Below are positions 37,400 through 43,805 of a stretch of DNA of 64,000 nucleotides, in pieces (position 1 is the first letter of the stretch; every line of letters starts with the position of its first letter). The DNA lies in the NCBI GenBank assembly GCA_017480795.1, contig JAFURY010000049.1:2-64001 (forward strand), in the 5' to 3' direction. This DNA is from Succinivibrionaceae bacterium. GTDB taxonomy: Bacteria; Pseudomonadota; Gammaproteobacteria; Enterobacterales; Succinivibrionaceae. The notes beneath the pieces are model-generated. The model ran no database searches, was not told the origin of the DNA, and saw only the letters and a program-made list of their open reading frames with translations. The position numbers and the translations under genes were made by a program.

Positions 37400-38161
37400 C
37401 TATTTTTCCTTTTCTTTAAAATCAAAATATTTGAACTTGTTGTTCTCAAGACTGATCTGCACCGCCTTGTGACGGAACTGGGGCTCGATGGCATCGCCGG
37501 GCTTGTAGATGCCGCCGATGGAAATCAGTTCGGCATCAAGATTCATGCACACGATGTGGGCATCTTCGTTCTCGTCCCTGACTCCCGCCAGCGCCTTGCC
37601 TCTGAGAGCCCCCAGCACCGTGATGTCGTAGTCCGCGTACACCACGGCGCCGTTGCTGACGTCGCCCTTGACCAGAAGGGAGCAGCCGGCGGCTCTGATC
37701 TCGGTTCCAGAACGGACGTTGCCCTCCACCACCTTGGTGTTGCCGCAGGAGGACACCACCTGGGTCACCACCTTCACCTGCGGCTCGGCCTGAGCCGGAG
37801 TCGCAGAGGCGGCAGAAGCGCTTGGCGCGGCGGCCTGGGGCTGAGGCACGTCCCGGGCGCCCAGGGCGTTGAACACCGGATAGCCGGCGTTGAAAATTCT
37901 TACCTTGATGTCGTTCCTGTCGTTGACCCCGGAAAATCCCACCAGAATGAAATTGTACTTGTCGGTGATCTTTCTGATCTCGGCAATGTCCGGAATATCG
38001 TCGACCTCCTGGATGTTGATGATAAGAGCGCTGTTGTAGAAATAGCTCTTGTAGGCCTGCGTCTTTTCGTCAAGCGCCCGCTCGATGTCTCCGAGATTCG
38101 CGCTTCTGAGAAACAGACATGTGAAAGGCAGAGTCTGAGTCCTCACCTCGTTGCCAGACAT
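37400..38161 (-). CDS. minC: Septum site-determining protein MinC
   Basis: 253 aa, Pro/Ala-rich linker, C-terminal beta-helix segment (VRSGTEIRAAGCSLLVKGDVSNGAVVYADYDITVLGALRGKALAG). Upstream of minD. Confidence 0.85.
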   Translation of the reverse strand: MSGNEVRTQTLPFTCLFLRSANLGDIERALDEKTQAYKSYFYNSALIINIQEVDDIPDIAEIRKITDKYNFILVGFSGVNDRNDIKVRIFNAGYPVFNALGARDVPQPQAAAPSASAASATPAQAEPQVKVVTQVVSSCGNTKVVEGNVRSGTEIRAAGCSLLVKGDVSNGAVVYADYDITVLGALRGKALAGVRDENEDAHIVCMNLDAELISIGGIYKPGDAIEPQFRHKAVQISLENNKFKYFDFKEKEK

Positions 38162-38543
38162 TTTTCCCCCTAATCGACAGCAATAATCCGAACTTCTGCA
38201 ACCTCCTCATTATATCAAACGGCAGGGATGCGCAAAAGTGCCACAAAAGACGCGAGAGCCGGGAGTCATGAGATCGGCGGGGCGGGAACCCGTCCATCGG
38301 AGCCGGCATGCCGGGCGCGAGGTTCCGCTTCCGGCCCCGTTCCGTCTCCGGGACCGCCGGTTTCGGGAAATTTTGCGCTCTGAGCGCCCATATCCGGTCT
38401 CCGCCCCGCTCTGACCGCGAAATTCCGGACGTCTTGAAGGCAATTTTGTGAAGCGGCGGGCAGTTTTGAGTTATAATCGGCGATGCCATTGATTTGGTTC
38501 ACAATTTTGTATTTTTGTTTGATTTGCAGGCAGATTATTTACT

Positions 38544-40259
38544 ATGAGCGGCTGTCTACTGCTGATAATCGCCGTGGTTTACTTCACGGCGTTTTATTTC
38601 ATATACGGAAAATTCATCTCCAGGGTGCTGGGCGTCGATCCGTCCCGGCCCACCCCGGCGCACACCAGAAACGACGGCGTGGACTACACGCCGGCCCGGC
38701 CGGCGGTGCTGTTCGGACACCACTTCGCGTCCATCGCGGGATCCGGTCCCATCCTGGGTCCGATCTTCGCATCGGAACTGGGATGGGGACCGGCGATTCT
38801 GTGGATCCTGCTGGGCAGCGTGTTCTTCGGCGGACTGCACGACTTCGCGGCGCTGTTTCTGTCGGTCCGTCACGAAGGAAAGTCGATTTCCAGCGTCATA
38901 GAAGAGCTCATCGGCTACGCCGGCAGAATGCTGTTTTCCATTTTCTGCTGGACCACCCTGGTGCTGGTGGTGGCCATGTTCGCCCTGATGACGGCCGAAA
39001 TTTTCATCGCCACGCCGTCGGCGGCCACAGCCTCGCTGATCTTCATTCTGCTGGCTCCGGTTTACGGCTTCTTCGTCAACAAGGGAATTCTCAGCGTTCT
39101 GACCGCCTCTCTGATATTCGTGCCGCTGACATTCCTGACGGTGTACGTGGGCATGCTCTTGCCCTGCGATCTGACGGCCATCGGAAGTTACTTCGGACTT
39201 GAACTGAGCCATGGCGCCTGCAGCATCATCTGGCTTGCGGTGCTGGGCGTTTACGTGTTCATCGCCTCCGTAACACCGGTGCAGTGGCTGCTGCAGCCGA
39301 GAGACTTTCTCAATTCGTTCCTGCTTTACGCCATGCTCGTCATCGGCTTTTTCGGCATTGTGCTCTACAATCCGCACATCGCCCAGGACGCCTTCCATGG
39401 TCTGGTGGTGCATCTGCCCTCAGGCGCCGACAAGTCGGTGTTCCCTACCCTGTTCATCGTGATCGCCTGCGGCGCCTGCTCCGGCTTCCACTCTCTGGTG
39501 GCCTCCGGCACCACCTCCAAGCAGGTGAGCTCCGAAAAGGACATCCAGCTGGTGGGCTACGGCGGAATGCTGCTGGAGGGCGTGCTGGGAGTGATCTCTC
39601 TGATCTCCGTGATTTATCTTTCCGGCAGCGACTTCACCGCAGCTGTGGCCAAACCGCAGCTGGCTTTCGCCAGCGGCATCGCCACCTTCTCGTCGGCTCT
39701 GGGCTTCAGCGCCGAGGTGGCCGGTCCGTTCATATCCCTGGTGCTGGCCGCGTTCATGATGACCTCCCTTGACACCGCCACCCGTCTGGGCCGATTCATA
39801 TGGCAGGAAATCCTTCTTGGCAGAAGCGACCGGAGACAGAGCGGTCCTCAGACCCTGCCTGCGGCCAGACGCTTCCTGTCCAACTCCTACGTCGCCTCGG
39901 TCATCATCGTCCTGGTTGCCGTGCTGCTGTGCGTTTCCGGCAAGGCAGGAGCCATCTGGCCGGTATTCGGCGCCTCGAACCAGCTTCTGGCGGCGCTGAC
40001 CCTCCTTGGCATTTCACTCTTCCTGCTGAAGTACCGCAGCCGCTCCTACATCGCCTTCATACCCATGATTTTCATGACGGTGATGAGCTGCTGGGGTCTT
40101 GGCATGATGATGACCAGCTCCTCCACCGCGCTGATGCTGGTGGTGATCTGCGCCGTGCTGCTGCTGCTGACGGCTCTGCTGATGACGCTGGCGGTAAAAT
40201 CGGTGCTGAAGATCAGAAAAGCCCGCCGCATAAGCGGACTGAAGCCTTCGGAGCAATAA
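38544..40259 (+). CDS. CstA-family (carbon starvation / peptide-pyruvate) transporter
   Basis: 571-aa polytopic membrane protein with the CstA signature VLFGHHFASIAGSGPILGPI. Confidence 0.85.
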   Translation: MSGCLLLIIAVVYFTAFYFIYGKFISRVLGVDPSRPTPAHTRNDGVDYTPARPAVLFGHHFASIAGSGPILGPIFASELGWGPAILWILLGSVFFGGLHDFAALFLSVRHEGKSISSVIEELIGYAGRMLFSIFCWTTLVLVVAMFALMTAEIFIATPSAATASLIFILLAPVYGFFVNKGILSVLTASLIFVPLTFLTVYVGMLLPCDLTAIGSYFGLELSHGACSIIWLAVLGVYVFIASVTPVQWLLQPRDFLNSFLLYAMLVIGFFGIVLYNPHIAQDAFHGLVVHLPSGADKSVFPTLFIVIACGACSGFHSLVASGTTSKQVSSEKDIQLVGYGGMLLEGVLGVISLISVIYLSGSDFTAAVAKPQLAFASGIATFSSALGFSAEVAGPFISLVLAAFMMTSLDTATRLGRFIWQEILLGRSDRRQSGPQTLPAARRFLSNSYVASVIIVLVAVLLCVSGKAGAIWPVFGASNQLLAALTLLGISLFLLKYRSRSYIAFIPMIFMTVMSCWGLGMMMTSSSTALMLVVICAVLLLLTALLMTLAVKSVLKIRKARRISGLKPSEQ

Positions 40260-40379
40260 CGTCGGGCGCGGATTCGAAATTCCGGGACCGAAAATTTAAG
40301 GATCTGAAATTTTAAACTGGAAGCTGGAGTTTGACGAACAAAACTCCGGCTTCGACTGATCCCGCATGACGCAAGGCTG

Positions 40380-41215
40380 CTGTCGATTCTATCCATCCGC
40401 TGCGGAATTCAACCGGCCGGCGTCAGGCTCTCGGCGTCCGTGTTCCATCGATATGCATACTAATTTTCTAATCCGATAAAACGTAGCAAACCCTTGCCGC
40501 GCAAGGGTTTATTGCACAAGATTTCAGCCGCCTGCTGCGGAATGCCGCATGCAGTCGTCAGGCCATCGGCACCCGTGTTCCATCGATATGCATACTAATT
40601 TTCTAATCCGATAAAACGTAGCAAACCCTTGCCGCGCAAGGGTTTATTGCACAAGATTTCAGCCGCCTGCTGCGGAATGCCGCATGCAGTCGTCAGGCCC
40701 TCGGCACCAGTGTTCCATCGATATGCATACTAATTTTCTAATCCGATAAAACGTAGCAAACCCTTGCCGCGCAAGGGTTTATTGCACAAGATTTCAGCCG
40801 CCTGCTGCGGAATGCCGCATGCAGTCGTCAGGCCCTCTGCAGCCGTGTTCCATCGATATGCATACTAATTTTCTAATCCGATAAAACATCGCAAGCCCTT
40901 GCCGCGCAAGGGTTTATGGCACAGACTTCAGCCGCCTGCTGCGGAATGGCGCAGACAGGCGTCAGGCTCTCGGCGCCCATGTTCCATCGATATGCATACT
41001 AATTTTCCAATCTGATAAAACATCGCAAACCATTGCCGCGCAAGGGTTTATGGCACAGACTTCAGCCGTCTGCTGCGGAATGTCGCCGGCAGGCGTCAGG
41101 CCCTCGGCAGCCGTGTTCCATCGATATGCATACTAATTTTCTAATCCGATAAAACGTCGCACCCCTTGCCGCGCAAGGGTTTATGGCACCAGATTTCAGC
41201 CGCCTGCTGCGGAAG
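40380..41215. repeat. Tandem array of six ~135-bp non-coding units plus partial flanking copies
   Basis: Unit starts (TGTTCCATCGATATGCATAC) at 40441, 40576, 40711, 40846, 40980 and 41114. Each unit holds an AT-rich block, the hairpin AAACCCTTGC-cgc-GCAAGGGTTT (first copy at 40488-40510) followed by TTTAT, and a second imperfect hairpin around CTGCGGAAT. The six-frame track lists no ORF within 40397..41165 (end of ORF 40046..40396 to start of ORF 41166..41459). Confidence 0.9.
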
Positions 41216-41364
41216 ACAGCTGCTTGCGCCGCTGTTTGGTCACCCGCAGCGTCAGGGAGCAGCTCTTCAGCCAGAGAAGCGCCCTGGGATCATGAAAGCG
41301 GCGAAAAGATCAGACACCCGGAAACGATTTCGGCACCGAGGAGATTGTATCCCAGGATGCGGAT

Positions 41365-42525
41365 TTAAAACGGCAGCATTGCCGCCAGCGGCAGCAGCAG
41401 GGTATCCAGCGCAAACAGCAGCGCCAGAGTCAGACCGACCCATACGGCGGCGGCCATAAACGAAGGAGCGCTGGGCTGGCGACCGTCGGTTACGGCGTTA
41501 AGGGCGATGCGCACCGTGAAATACCGCAGCATCAGCCAGACGGTCAGCGGGAGACAGAGATTGAATGTGGCAAGCAGCAGCAGACTGCTGCGGACAAAAA
41601 GCAGACTGAGAACCGTCAGCGCGCACGCCGAGGCGTTTACTGCGGCCAGCAGGCTGATCCGCCCGCAGAGGGAGGACCAGATGTACTGCCGGGCCTTCAG
41701 GAAGCAGATCTTGAGGCGCTGGGCGCTGAGACAGGCGGCGACGCTGTAGATGCCGGTGACAACCGCAGGAATGCTCAGGATCACGAAGAAAGCGAAGACG
41801 GTATGGCGCCAGACGCTTGTCACGTCGCGGGCGATGCCGGCATAGGATTTCAGCAGCGCGGCAAAGCTGTCAGCGTCGTAGACCCCGGCGTCAAGAAAGG
41901 ACATCAGCGGCTTGACGGACTGTTCCAAAAGCGACAGCGTCCCTTCGTAAACCATGGACACGATCCTGAAAGTCGAGAAGATCATGAACAGGAAGCAGAT
42001 ACAGGCCAGCGCGGTAAGGCCTCCAAGGATCCACAGCTGAACCTTCAGACCGAAACGAATTCTGCCGGCGGTTCTCTGCAGCTGTTCGTCCCAGACGAAA
42101 GCGCCGTTTGCGGAGTCGCCGCAGGCGGCGTTGCGGGACAGATCATCCCCGGCGTCAGTCCCGGACGTCGCGATCAGCGCGCAACTGTCCGACCTGCCAG
42201 GCTCCGCGGCGCTTTCGGGCGGCGCGCTCTGTCCTCTCTGACCTGTACTGGCCGACGCGCCATCATGCTCCTGGGTTTCCGCCGGACTTTTCTCAGATCC
42301 GTTCCTGGAAAACCTCTCTCCGTCGCCGGAGTCGGAGTCCGATGTCGCATCGCCGCATGAAGCATCCTTCGGGGACAAAGCCTCCCCGGCGCCGGCCGCC
42401 GGCCTGTTTTCGGCGTTCCGGCCGTCCGCGCAGCTTCGGCCCTGATCCGCGCCTTCAGGAGAATTCCGGTTTGAACCGTTTCCAGGATTTTCTTCGGTCC
42501 CGGATACCGGGCTGTCCTGCCTCAC
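41365..42525 (-). CDS. Hypothetical polytopic membrane protein with disordered N-terminus
   Basis: 386 aa: ~150 aa of low complexity (S/G/D/A-rich), then about 5-6 hydrophobic helices. The start overlaps the rnd stop by 4 nt. Confidence 0.5.
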   Translation of the reverse strand: MRQDSPVSGTEENPGNGSNRNSPEGADQGRSCADGRNAENRPAAGAGEALSPKDASCGDATSDSDSGDGERFSRNGSEKSPAETQEHDGASASTGQRGQSAPPESAAEPGRSDSCALIATSGTDAGDDLSRNAACGDSANGAFVWDEQLQRTAGRIRFGLKVQLWILGGLTALACICFLFMIFSTFRIVSMVYEGTLSLLEQSVKPLMSFLDAGVYDADSFAALLKSYAGIARDVTSVWRHTVFAFFVILSIPAVVTGIYSVAACLSAQRLKICFLKARQYIWSSLCGRISLLAAVNASACALTVLSLLFVRSSLLLLATFNLCLPLTVWLMLRYFTVRIALNAVTDGRQPSAPSFMAAAVWVGLTLALLFALDTLLLPLAAMLPF

Positions 42526-43805
42526 CCCGCATCTCCGCTGTTGATGCTGCCGTCGCCTGCGGCGGAGGCGGTTTTGTCCGGAGCGTCGCCTGCGCCCTGC
42601 GGCGCCGATTCCGTCCGCGCATACCGCCCGACGTCCACATGCAGAAAGCTCAAATCGCTGTCGCCGAACTCCTGCGAATCCCTGAGAATTTTTTCAAGAA
42701 ACTCTGTTTTCCACGGAGAGTACAGCACCGGCGGGGTTTCCAGCTGCTCGCGCATGTCGCAGCCGAGCCAGAGGCACAGATCGGAGGTTTCTCGTCTGCT
42801 GACGCCGGCATCCCGGTGAATGCCGCGGCTGTCGCAGAAGGCGCGGATGTCCTCGATGAGCATGTTTCCGAATTTCGAGTATTCGGAATTCGGGATGAGA
42901 GAGCCGGTGAAAATGCCATCCTCGTCCAGATGGCTGCTGTAGAGAATGTCGAGGATGTCATGACCGTACAGCTTCACCGCCTTGGGATGCATTCCGGCGA
43001 TAACCAGGGATCTGCCGTCATGCATGCGGGTCTTCACCAGTTTGGGCAGCGCCGCGCCGGGAATGATCCTCGACAGCGCAATGTTCTCCTCCTCCCCCTT
43101 GCGCCGGCGGTAGCGGACCAGCTCCCTGAGTCTGGCCATCTGCCTGACGCTCATGGAGCTGTCGGCATGCTTGAGATAGGCCTTGTCGGGATCCGCGGGA
43201 TGAAGCGTCCTGATGACCATCACCATGACGTCCTGGTCGTAGTAACGGCTGTGACCGTTCGCATCAATCCTCTCCTTAAGGATACGGTACATGTCAAGCA
43301 GATAGTAGACGTCAAGGGCGGCGTAGCGGATCTGCTGGGAGTTCAGAGGTCTGGTCATCCAGATGCTGGTGGTCTGATCCTTGAGGATCTCCACTCCCAA
43401 TAACAGTTTGATGATGGCGGCAAGCCCCAGCTTTCTGGTTTCGCCGACATACGGCAGCATCATCTGAAGATCGTCGATATGCTTGGGAAGGGATCCGCTG
43501 CAGTGGTAGATGACCTCCAGATCCTCCCGCATGGAAAAGAACACGAACCTGGCATCGGATGCCACAAAGGCCTTCCAGAAGGCGTCCCGCTGCTTCATGT
43601 CAAGGGAGATCACATCCACCAGATACACCCTTTTGCCGTCGTAAAGCTGCACCAGGGCGACAAGGGGATACAGCGTCTCGATGCGCACGAATTCGGTATC
43701 CACCCCGATAAGAGGCTCGGTGGCAAGGCACTTCAGCACCTCGCCCAGCTTCTCCTGACTGTCGGCGTAGCACACCGGCATGTCGAGACTGTCGTTAACG
43801 GTCAA
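42522..43805 (-). CDS. rnd: Ribonuclease D
   Basis: DEDD 3'-5' exonuclease motifs (IGVDTEFVR, FFSMREDLEV, YAALDVYYLL). Conserved rnd-fadD adjacency. TTG start at 43805 with AGGAG 7 nt upstream. Confidence 0.8.
   Translation of the reverse strand: MTVNDSLDMPVCYADSQEKLGEVLKCLATEPLIGVDTEFVRIETLYPLVALVQLYDGKRVYLVDVISLDMKQRDAFWKAFVASDARFVFFSMREDLEVIYHCSGSLPKHIDDLQMMLPYVGETRKLGLAAIIKLLLGVEILKDQTTSIWMTRPLNSQQIRYAALDVYYLLDMYRILKERIDANGHSRYYDQDVMVMVIRTLHPADPDKAYLKHADSSMSVRQMARLRELVRYRRRKGEEENIALSRIIPGAALPKLVKTRMHDGRSLVIAGMHPKAVKLYGHDILDILYSSHLDEDGIFTGSLIPNSEYSKFGNMLIEDIRAFCDSRGIHRDAGVSRRETSDLCLWLGCDMREQLETPPVLYSPWKTEFLEKILRDSQEFGDSDLSFLHVDVGRYARTESAPQGAGDAPDKTASAAGDGSINSGDAG

Follow-up and report, generated by a model that had tools for sequence, protein, structure and literature searches.

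What is the block of six almost regular, non-coding repeats that follows cstA in this Succinivibrionaceae genome? In the window, by which we mean the whole 64,000-nucleotide stretch of DNA that was analyzed, cstA (571 aa; 38544..40259, plus strand; Pfam CstA PF02554, E 5.2e-133) and a convergent ORF of 386 aa (41365..42525, minus strand), which has a hydrophobic C-terminal half and no family match, enclose a single array that Tandem Repeats Finder (TRF) places at 40421-41214, with a period of 135, 5.9 copies, 93% matches, and 0 indels. The preliminary description of this locus favored tandem small-RNA genes or RNAs derived from the 3' UTR of cstA, with a link to CsrA, and offered a stack of terminators or protein-binding sites and a lineage-specific minisatellite as alternatives. 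As we discuss below, comparative sequence evidence indicates that the array is in all likelihood a non-coding minisatellite derived from the right end of an IS1634-family insertion sequence (IS), with each 135-bp unit composed of ~100 nt of that end and a linker of 35-43 nt. The minisatellite and the stack of terminators or binding sites were the closest of the proposed readings, and the small-RNA option found no support.

The units are marked by an invariant 21-mer, TATGCATACTAATTTTCTAAT, whose starts at 40453, 40588, 40723, 40858, 40992, and 41126 were established from the sequence and by a genome-wide motif scan. The unit starts originally proposed lie 12 nt 5' of each 21-mer and define six plus-strand units with periods of 135, 135, 135, 134, and 134, as had been described. 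Unit 1 (40441..40575) contains the 21-mer at 40453-40473, a hairpin (hairpin 1) at 40487-40511, and a tip-like sequence, TGCTGCGGAAT, at 40534-40544, followed by the linker. Units 2 (40576..40710) and 3 (40711..40845, delimited by TRF and inter-unit identity) are 98.5% identical to each other, and the mutual identity of units 1-3 is 97.1-98.5%, consistent with their description as near-identical. Units 4 (40846..40979) and 5 (40980..41113), each of 134 bp, and unit 6 (41114..41219) are diverged, with 83.8-90.4% identity to all other units. No unit departs from the others in the 21-mer, its flanks, or the hairpin core, and the variable columns fall mostly in the 35-43 nt between a tip-like TGCGGAAT and the next 21-mer. 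Unit 1 is preceded by a degenerate partial unit (40380..40440, plus strand), recognized from its sequence and a junction alignment, that consists of a tip-like CTGCGGAAT and a linker. The decaying tail reported beyond the last unit did not hold up, as the tail and spacer before the convergent gene (41220..41364) do not resemble the unit significantly, with a score at least as good in 142 of 300 shuffles. At the convergent 386-aa ORF, a terminator-like hairpin occupies 41387-41371. Neither strand carries an ORF of at least 40 aa within 40397-41165, in agreement with the preliminary description. The nearest CstA loci come from one Enterobacterales bin and from Anaerobiospirillum.

Several observations tie the repeat to an IS1634-family IS that is present on contig C18 of this genome and across the Succinivibrionaceae, with ~100 nt per unit homologous to the right end of that IS. 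First, unit 2 aligned locally with the IS right end of L162 at a score of 39, ~20 SD above shuffled sequences (mean 8.6-8.7, sd 1.5; reached in 0 of 2000 shuffles), and with the C18 right end of its own genome at a score of 32 (again 0 of 2000). Second, BLAST aligned unit and right end at ~70% identity over 96-102 nt (E 2e-12 in a small database), and the unit 6 alignment stopped just 1 nt short of the IS tip (query 274-374, subject 159-259 of 260). Third, the same parts occur in the same order in the unit and in the right end, namely the 21-mer, an A-rich stretch, a hairpin with a conserved CCTTG, a T-rich stretch, and the tip. The IS counterpart of the 21-mer is subterminal and adjoins the transposase stop codon. 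Finally, unit 6 ends in the fullest terminal repeat of the array, CTGCGGAAGACAG, which matches the IS tip CTGCGGAACACAGG at 12 of 14 positions. In units 1-5, TGCGGAAT is retained and followed either by divergence or by an insertion of 7-8 nt, and in the internal units the canonical tip is missing its final ~6 nt. In substance, the unit belongs to a dispersed mobile-element family, as an IS1634-family end, an outcome that the preliminary description had counted against its own favored reading. The terminal and subterminal repeats within the units are presumed transposase-binding sites.

The parent element is ~2.4 kb long, with complete copies of 2382-2472 bp. A full-length relative encodes a 731-aa transposase (L180:286-2481) that matches the NCBIfam IS1634-family model NF033559 with 241 bits (cut-off 100). 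One metagenome contig carries two outward-facing copies of the end at a distance of 2.3 kb, and the one long ORF between them encodes a DDE transposase (Pfam DDE_Tnp_1). The terminal repeat of the element is TGCGGAAnACAGG, with the tip form CTGCGGAACACAGG at the C18 right end, and both element ends finish TGCGGAA(C/G/T)ACAGG (10 of 17 rows exact, one row chance-like); each IS end also has a subterminal hairpin. Metagenome loci resembling that of the same-genus genome G005 join one left flank to different right flanks directly after ...TGCGGAACACAGG. At E up to 1e-10, the C-terminal part of the transposase has matches in 51 of the 98 family genomes. In the present genome, contig C18 starts within the 3' end of the transposase gene (last 45 codons, 67% identity, E 9e-15) and continues into the right end, the last bases of which are ...CTGCGGAACACAGG; a query with the transposase N-terminus (488 aa) gave no match in this genome. 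Perfect direct repeats of 80, 229, and 91 bp flank three of the five intact IS copies examined; of the other two, one had no repeat in the flanks examined and one had flanks too short for a judgment. These long repeats agree with the behavior of IS1549 and IS1634, for which long, variable direct repeats of 8-514 bp are given in a 2008 review of the IS4 superfamily (PMC2266710). The same review tabulates the terminal pattern of the family as C-----YT, which the tip CCTGTGTT found here fits, and states that there is no model for the long variable duplications (PMC2266710).

Descent from an IS right end also accounts for the two hairpins of the unit. The 10-bp hairpin reported earlier, AAACCCTTGC-cgc-GCAAGGGTTT (hairpin 1), is present; units 4 and 6 have a changed A-run, and every unit retains GGGTTTAT. 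In two IS copies, a terminator-like site with a 15-bp stem and a T-tail lies just after the transposase gene on the sense strand, and different IS copies carry a hairpin at that place with differing sequences. Because the order of parts in the unit matches that of the IS right end, hairpin 1 is by homology the putative terminator hairpin of the IS transposase gene. The plus-strand terminator originally proposed from the asymmetry of the A- and T-runs finds no backing in a consensus terminator scan, which flagged the unit hairpins on the minus strand only, as 6 of the 9 sites found versus 1.6 expected. The outer stem and T-run of hairpin 1 have decayed in the array, and with the A-T base pairs opened the plus-strand tail reads TTTATTG or TTTATGG. 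With this decay and the minus-strand result of the scan, a plus-strand-specific terminator is plausible by descent at most. In hairpin 2, the IS tip CTGCTGCGGAA pairs with the beginning of the adjoining linker.

Relative to known IS1634/IS1549 elements, the array agrees in that its unit is colinear with the right end of elements with an NF033559-matching transposase and in that intact copies of these elements show the long direct repeats of the family (80, 91, and 229 bp). It differs in that the end is reiterated head-to-tail six times with truncated internal tips and in that there is no transposase gene, left end, or flanking duplication. We rejected a complete IS1634-family element at this site, as all units share one orientation and no transposase gene lies between two inverted ends. 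A tblastn search of positions 38000-43000 with seven transposases (E up to 0.01) detected no transposase remnant, the left flank of the array has no DNA likeness to the transposase 3' end, and comparison of 780 nt on the left with 785 nt on the right revealed no flanking direct repeat, only chance matches of 11-14 nt. The linker bears at best a marginal likeness to transposase 3' ends, against which it scored best in comparisons equaled by 12 of 500 and 30 of 2000 shuffles, values that are the best of several comparisons and uncorrected, and its similarity to the linker of the G006 array was equaled by 149 of 2000 shuffles. The identity of the units to any sampled IS end is no more than ~70%. 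Because the GC content of the array is host-like (52.6% versus 54.6% for the genome) and that of the C18 IS end is 37%, the array either is old and has ameliorated or stems from a GC-richer IS outside the sample.

Is this array unique? In the 2.83 Mb of this genome, the motif scan found two unit loci and one true IS end; the second unit locus, which answers the earlier call for further copies, consists of two diverged tandem units at the start of contig C160. Among 40 relatives, BLAST at E below 1e-6 gave one clear match, in G005, and one further 22-nt match at E 0.006 is likely chance. A 17-nt pattern used on the sequence collection was too loose (at least 120 stretches), and among the matches listed for it (80 loci with full flanks) none was unit-like beyond the pattern itself. 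Of five stretches that a sharper pattern found in species genomes, only the G005 locus is from a relative. The 21-mer scan of metagenomes returned 28 stretches, about 13 of them true and all of the G005-like type; the GC-rich type of this window was represented by none of the 28.

A broader view came from a model of the end (R1) trained on 26 ends, including some array units, and based on sequence alone because RNAalifold gave no consensus pair for these ends. Matches of R1 to the array, such as that to unit 1 (40449-40547, 69.6 bits), follow by construction, since the units are partly in the training set. R1 matched 19 of 98 family genomes, and in 4 of the 19 the matches were tandem and on the same strand: the present genome, with six units of 134-135 bp on contig C174 and two units on C160; G004:C312, with 3.0 copies of 103 bp; G006:C36, with 6.6 copies of 128 bp; and G076:C56, with two units 168 bp apart. 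All six of the array units tested scored higher against right ends than against left ends (for example, 39 versus 21, 46 versus 18, 24 versus 16, and 32 versus 14), and the units of G004, G006, and G076 were each closest to the IS right end of their own genome (0 of 2000 shuffles in each case). Because tandem arrays occur in four genomes and each scores as a right end, the right end has been reiterated repeatedly in this IS clade, not just once.

IS-derived repeats, solo ends, and MITEs are well known, and the array resembles MITEs, solo IS ends, and MITE-borne minisatellites in being non-coding, IS-related, intergenic, restricted to a narrow lineage, and composed of tandem repeats. REP and BIME elements are likewise intergenic tandem palindromic units tied to transposase recognition sites, often between convergent genes; REPs are ~20-40 nt long, alternate in orientation, and are related to RAYT genes of the IS200/IS605 type. 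By contrast, the units described here are 103-135 nt long, share one orientation, and derive from the end of a DDE-type IS. With CRISPR arrays, they share a regular period and a palindromic element, but the entire unit repeats and unique spacers are absent, which upholds the earlier statement that the locus is not CRISPR-like. We also considered and rejected a MITE, for which the second inverted end is at best a 10-nt vestige (9 of 10 positions, by eye), there is no duplication, and only two loci exist. In BrickBuilt of Porphyromonas gingivalis, a 23-nt repeat lies inside a MITE with inverted-repeat ends that is present 19 times per genome (PMC4596501). Unlike that element, the array has as its repeating unit a whole ~100-nt IS end plus a linker and occupies two loci in this genome. 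A search of the full-text literature, in which few subscription journals are covered, found no description of a complete IS right end arrayed head-to-tail.

How might such an array have arisen? We suggest that a single IS right end would have been left downstream of cstA and then duplicated, after which the array would have expanded and been partly homogenized by unequal recombination or replication slippage. Local amplification of this kind would fit the locus because the inner units 1-3 are young and the outer units diverged. The array is now probably a relic. Its most plausible present role would be residual termination between the convergent cstA and 386-aa ORF by up to six putative IS terminator hairpins, and it may still be bound by an IS transposase.

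The strongest rival to passive amplification holds that the arrays were made by the transposition machinery itself, a proposal that we consider rather unlikely. An IS would insert at or beside a resident right end with a long target duplication (~100-135 bp), the incoming copy would be lost while the tandem duplicate of the end stayed, and repeated cycles would build an array; alternatively, the unit might be a tiny non-autonomous element that re-inserts beside itself. That four genomes have arrays of the right end alone, similar in their unit limits and each closest to its own IS, is not expected from random slippage and hints at a directed process, and the direct repeats of 80, 91, and 229 bp at intact copies span the array periods of 103-135 bp. 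Details at the unit boundaries point the same way: CCCGTGTTCC, 5 nt 5' of the 21-mer, agrees by eye with the inverted left-end tip CCTGTGTTCC in 9 of its 10 positions, a C160 unit (C160b) has CCTGTGACCCG at the left-tip-like place, and the last unit alone keeps the fuller tip. Against this proposal, we found no intermediate in which an IS is flanked by duplicated right-end units, none of the three long duplications examined contains a match to R1, and arrays lack a flanking direct repeat. Moreover, the spacer between the tip and the left-tip-like motif is homologous between C174 and C160 and is therefore part of the unit rather than a target duplication, a result that also weakens a model of a MITE plus target duplication for the two loci of this genome. 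Unequal crossing-over would account just as well for how alike units 1-3 are. In its general form, the proposal that IS1634-family elements themselves generate tandem right-end arrays, as a by-product of their unexplained long-target-duplication reaction, strikes us as doubtful, and local amplification of an IS right end is the reading that we prefer.

The small-RNA reading fares considerably worse. It holds that the array consists of tandem small-RNA genes, or of RNAs processed from the cstA 3' UTR, each ending at hairpin 1, and it draws on a GC-rich hairpin followed by TTTAT in every unit, on the position of the array directly 3' of cstA on the same strand, and on the invariance of the 21-mer and hairpin core across the six units. 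Bacteria do carry tandem small-RNA gene arrays, such as LhrC1-4, OmrA/B, and PrrF1/2, which resemble the present array in having intergenic units of ~100-150 nt that each contain a terminator-like hairpin. Unlike those arrays, the units here have no promoter, covariation, or family match, and their conserved parts are features of IS ends. First, a sigma-70 promoter scan of 40200-41450 found a single sigma-70-like site, located outside the units, so that none of the units contains one, as had been noted before for promoters of this type. A plus-strand candidate picked by eye (TTGCCG, 17 nt, CAAGAT) was rejected, being below scan strength and having a -10 part that is not conserved between IS copies. 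Second, the Rfam search that had been advised gave no family match for the array at E up to 1; across 39800-41800 on both strands, the same threshold yielded two chance-level matches, none inside the array. Third, the covariation claimed for hairpin 2 was not found. Among nine junction sequences, none of the 11 pairs has changed on both sides, and the covariation score of 0.078 is matched or exceeded in 296 of 500 shuffles (mean 0.086). The 5' arm of hairpin 2 is nearly invariant and the differences are confined to its 3' arm; its two "alternative" pairings go back to a single imperfect palindrome that has decayed in different ways. Fourth, whole units show no unusual fold stability, with z = -1.6, -1.4, and +0.2 for the plus strand and -1.9, -1.6, and -0.4 for the minus strand, all no more than ~2 SD from shuffles. 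Finally, the invariant parts of the unit are those common to IS ends, and the closest cstA locus found (L131, with a protein 65.9% identical) has no such array. A search for RNA runs containing the locus found none. The favored option of the preliminary description, including its CsrA link, is thus unsupported, with promoter, Rfam match, and compensatory changes all absent, and we judge it very unlikely.

We also rejected a type I toxin-antitoxin repeat of the Ibs/Sib- or Ldr-like kind and other small peptides. ORFs of at least 12 aa shift frame between units 1-3 and units 4-5, and the small ORFs within the units are not hydrophobic (GRAVY -1.4 to +0.5) and have no Shine-Dalgarno-like sequence upstream. 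We infer that the array encodes no independent small RNAs or peptides.

That the array or its copy number is an assembly artefact of a short-read metagenome bin is the least probable reading of all: the genome is indeed a bin (74.9% complete, 176 contigs), units 1-3 are nearly identical, and no Logan contig found spans the entire array, but arrays of the same design exist independently in other genomes and distinct unit junctions are present in Logan contigs from four DNA runs (of one study, possibly the source sample) at depths similar to those of the flanks, contigs that show presence of the DNA only, with word depths in run X1 of 1054-1824 at the junctions 40535-40601, 40674-40738, 40905-41009, and 41063-41136 and of 1702-2038 in the flanks.

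With the array traced to an IS end, a candidate small-RNA array drops out, and each element conserved in the unit is accounted for by descent. In practice, short-read assemblies are broken by arrays of this kind, which can also pass for RNA genes or CRISPR-like loci. Our results also document, in gut and rumen Succinivibrionaceae, an IS1634-family clade with structured ends of ~125 nt and perfect target duplications of 80-229 bp, of which the right end alone has been reiterated, in four genomes, into arrays of two to seven units. Right-end arrays in related gut bacteria are a modest curiosity for transposon biology. If they are products of transposition rather than slippage, they would be natural footprints of IS insertion at a resident right end, accompanied by a duplication of ~100-135 bp and followed by disappearance of the newly inserted copy; they could also serve as transposase sinks or multi-terminator insulators, and they would offer a handle on how the long, variable duplications of the family are made.

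Genomes G006 and G004 also carry arrays of IS right ends, and in both cases the units most resemble the right end of the IS resident in the same genome. In G006, 6.6 units of 128 bp occupied positions 403-1243 of locus L201 (contig C36) and most resembled the right end of the resident IS copy L184; the final unit was truncated short of the tip, the terminal repeat of the IS, and no transposase remnant was found upstream of the array. In G004, 3.0 units of 103 bp lay at 1968-2276 of L199 (contig C312), ~90 nt from the contig end, and were closest to the right end of the IS copy L179.

The window's own genome (G000) carries a second unit locus, with two diverged units at 147-bp spacing (L007 1-480, contig C160) and perhaps a third, more decayed unit at about 20-130. 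Because this locus starts at a contig edge, it may extend further. Another contig, C18, opens within the 3' end of a transposase gene and continues into an IS right end (L198 1-235), and the rest of this IS is unassembled in the G000 bin. As the GC content of this IS end is 37% versus 54.6% for the genome, the element looks like a recent arrival.

Short motifs near the IS ends and unit edges also bear description. An 11-nt subterminal motif, CCAATATGCA(C), occurred three times in metagenome locus L154 and twice each in metagenome loci L162 and L151, and its copy number therefore varies just inside the right end. The sequence CCCGTGTTCC was positioned 5-6 nt 5' of the invariant subterminal 21-mer in the units of the array downstream of cstA (contig C174; window 40441-40452 and the equivalent site in every unit), and CCTGTGACCCG had the same placement in unit C160b of the second locus (L007 about 335-345). 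Both are similar to the inverted left-end tip, CCTGTGTTCCG, a likeness that may mark a vestigial left end or may reflect chance.

From the stop codon of cstA to the start of the array (window 40260-40440), no plus-strand terminator-like site was flagged; in L131, the locus of the nearest cstA relative, a clear hairpin and T-run immediately follow cstA. On the other side of the array, a minus-strand ORF of 386 amino acids (41365-42525; true start uncertain) had a low-complexity N-terminal half, a hydrophobic C-terminal half, and no match in Pfam or NCBIfam.

The IS copy from the metagenome lies between two genes (L161 683-1270, plus strand; L162 1598-2641, minus strand) whose products share an HPF(x)(D/E)GNGR motif, which corresponds to the Fic-domain signature. 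Finally, three intact IS1634-family copies of 2382-2427 bp each lay between direct repeats with 100% identity, which measured 80 bp (L182, G067:C30), 229 bp (L183, G070:C1), and 91 bp (L186, G076:C47), extending the long-duplication trait of the IS1634 family to the Succinivibrionaceae.
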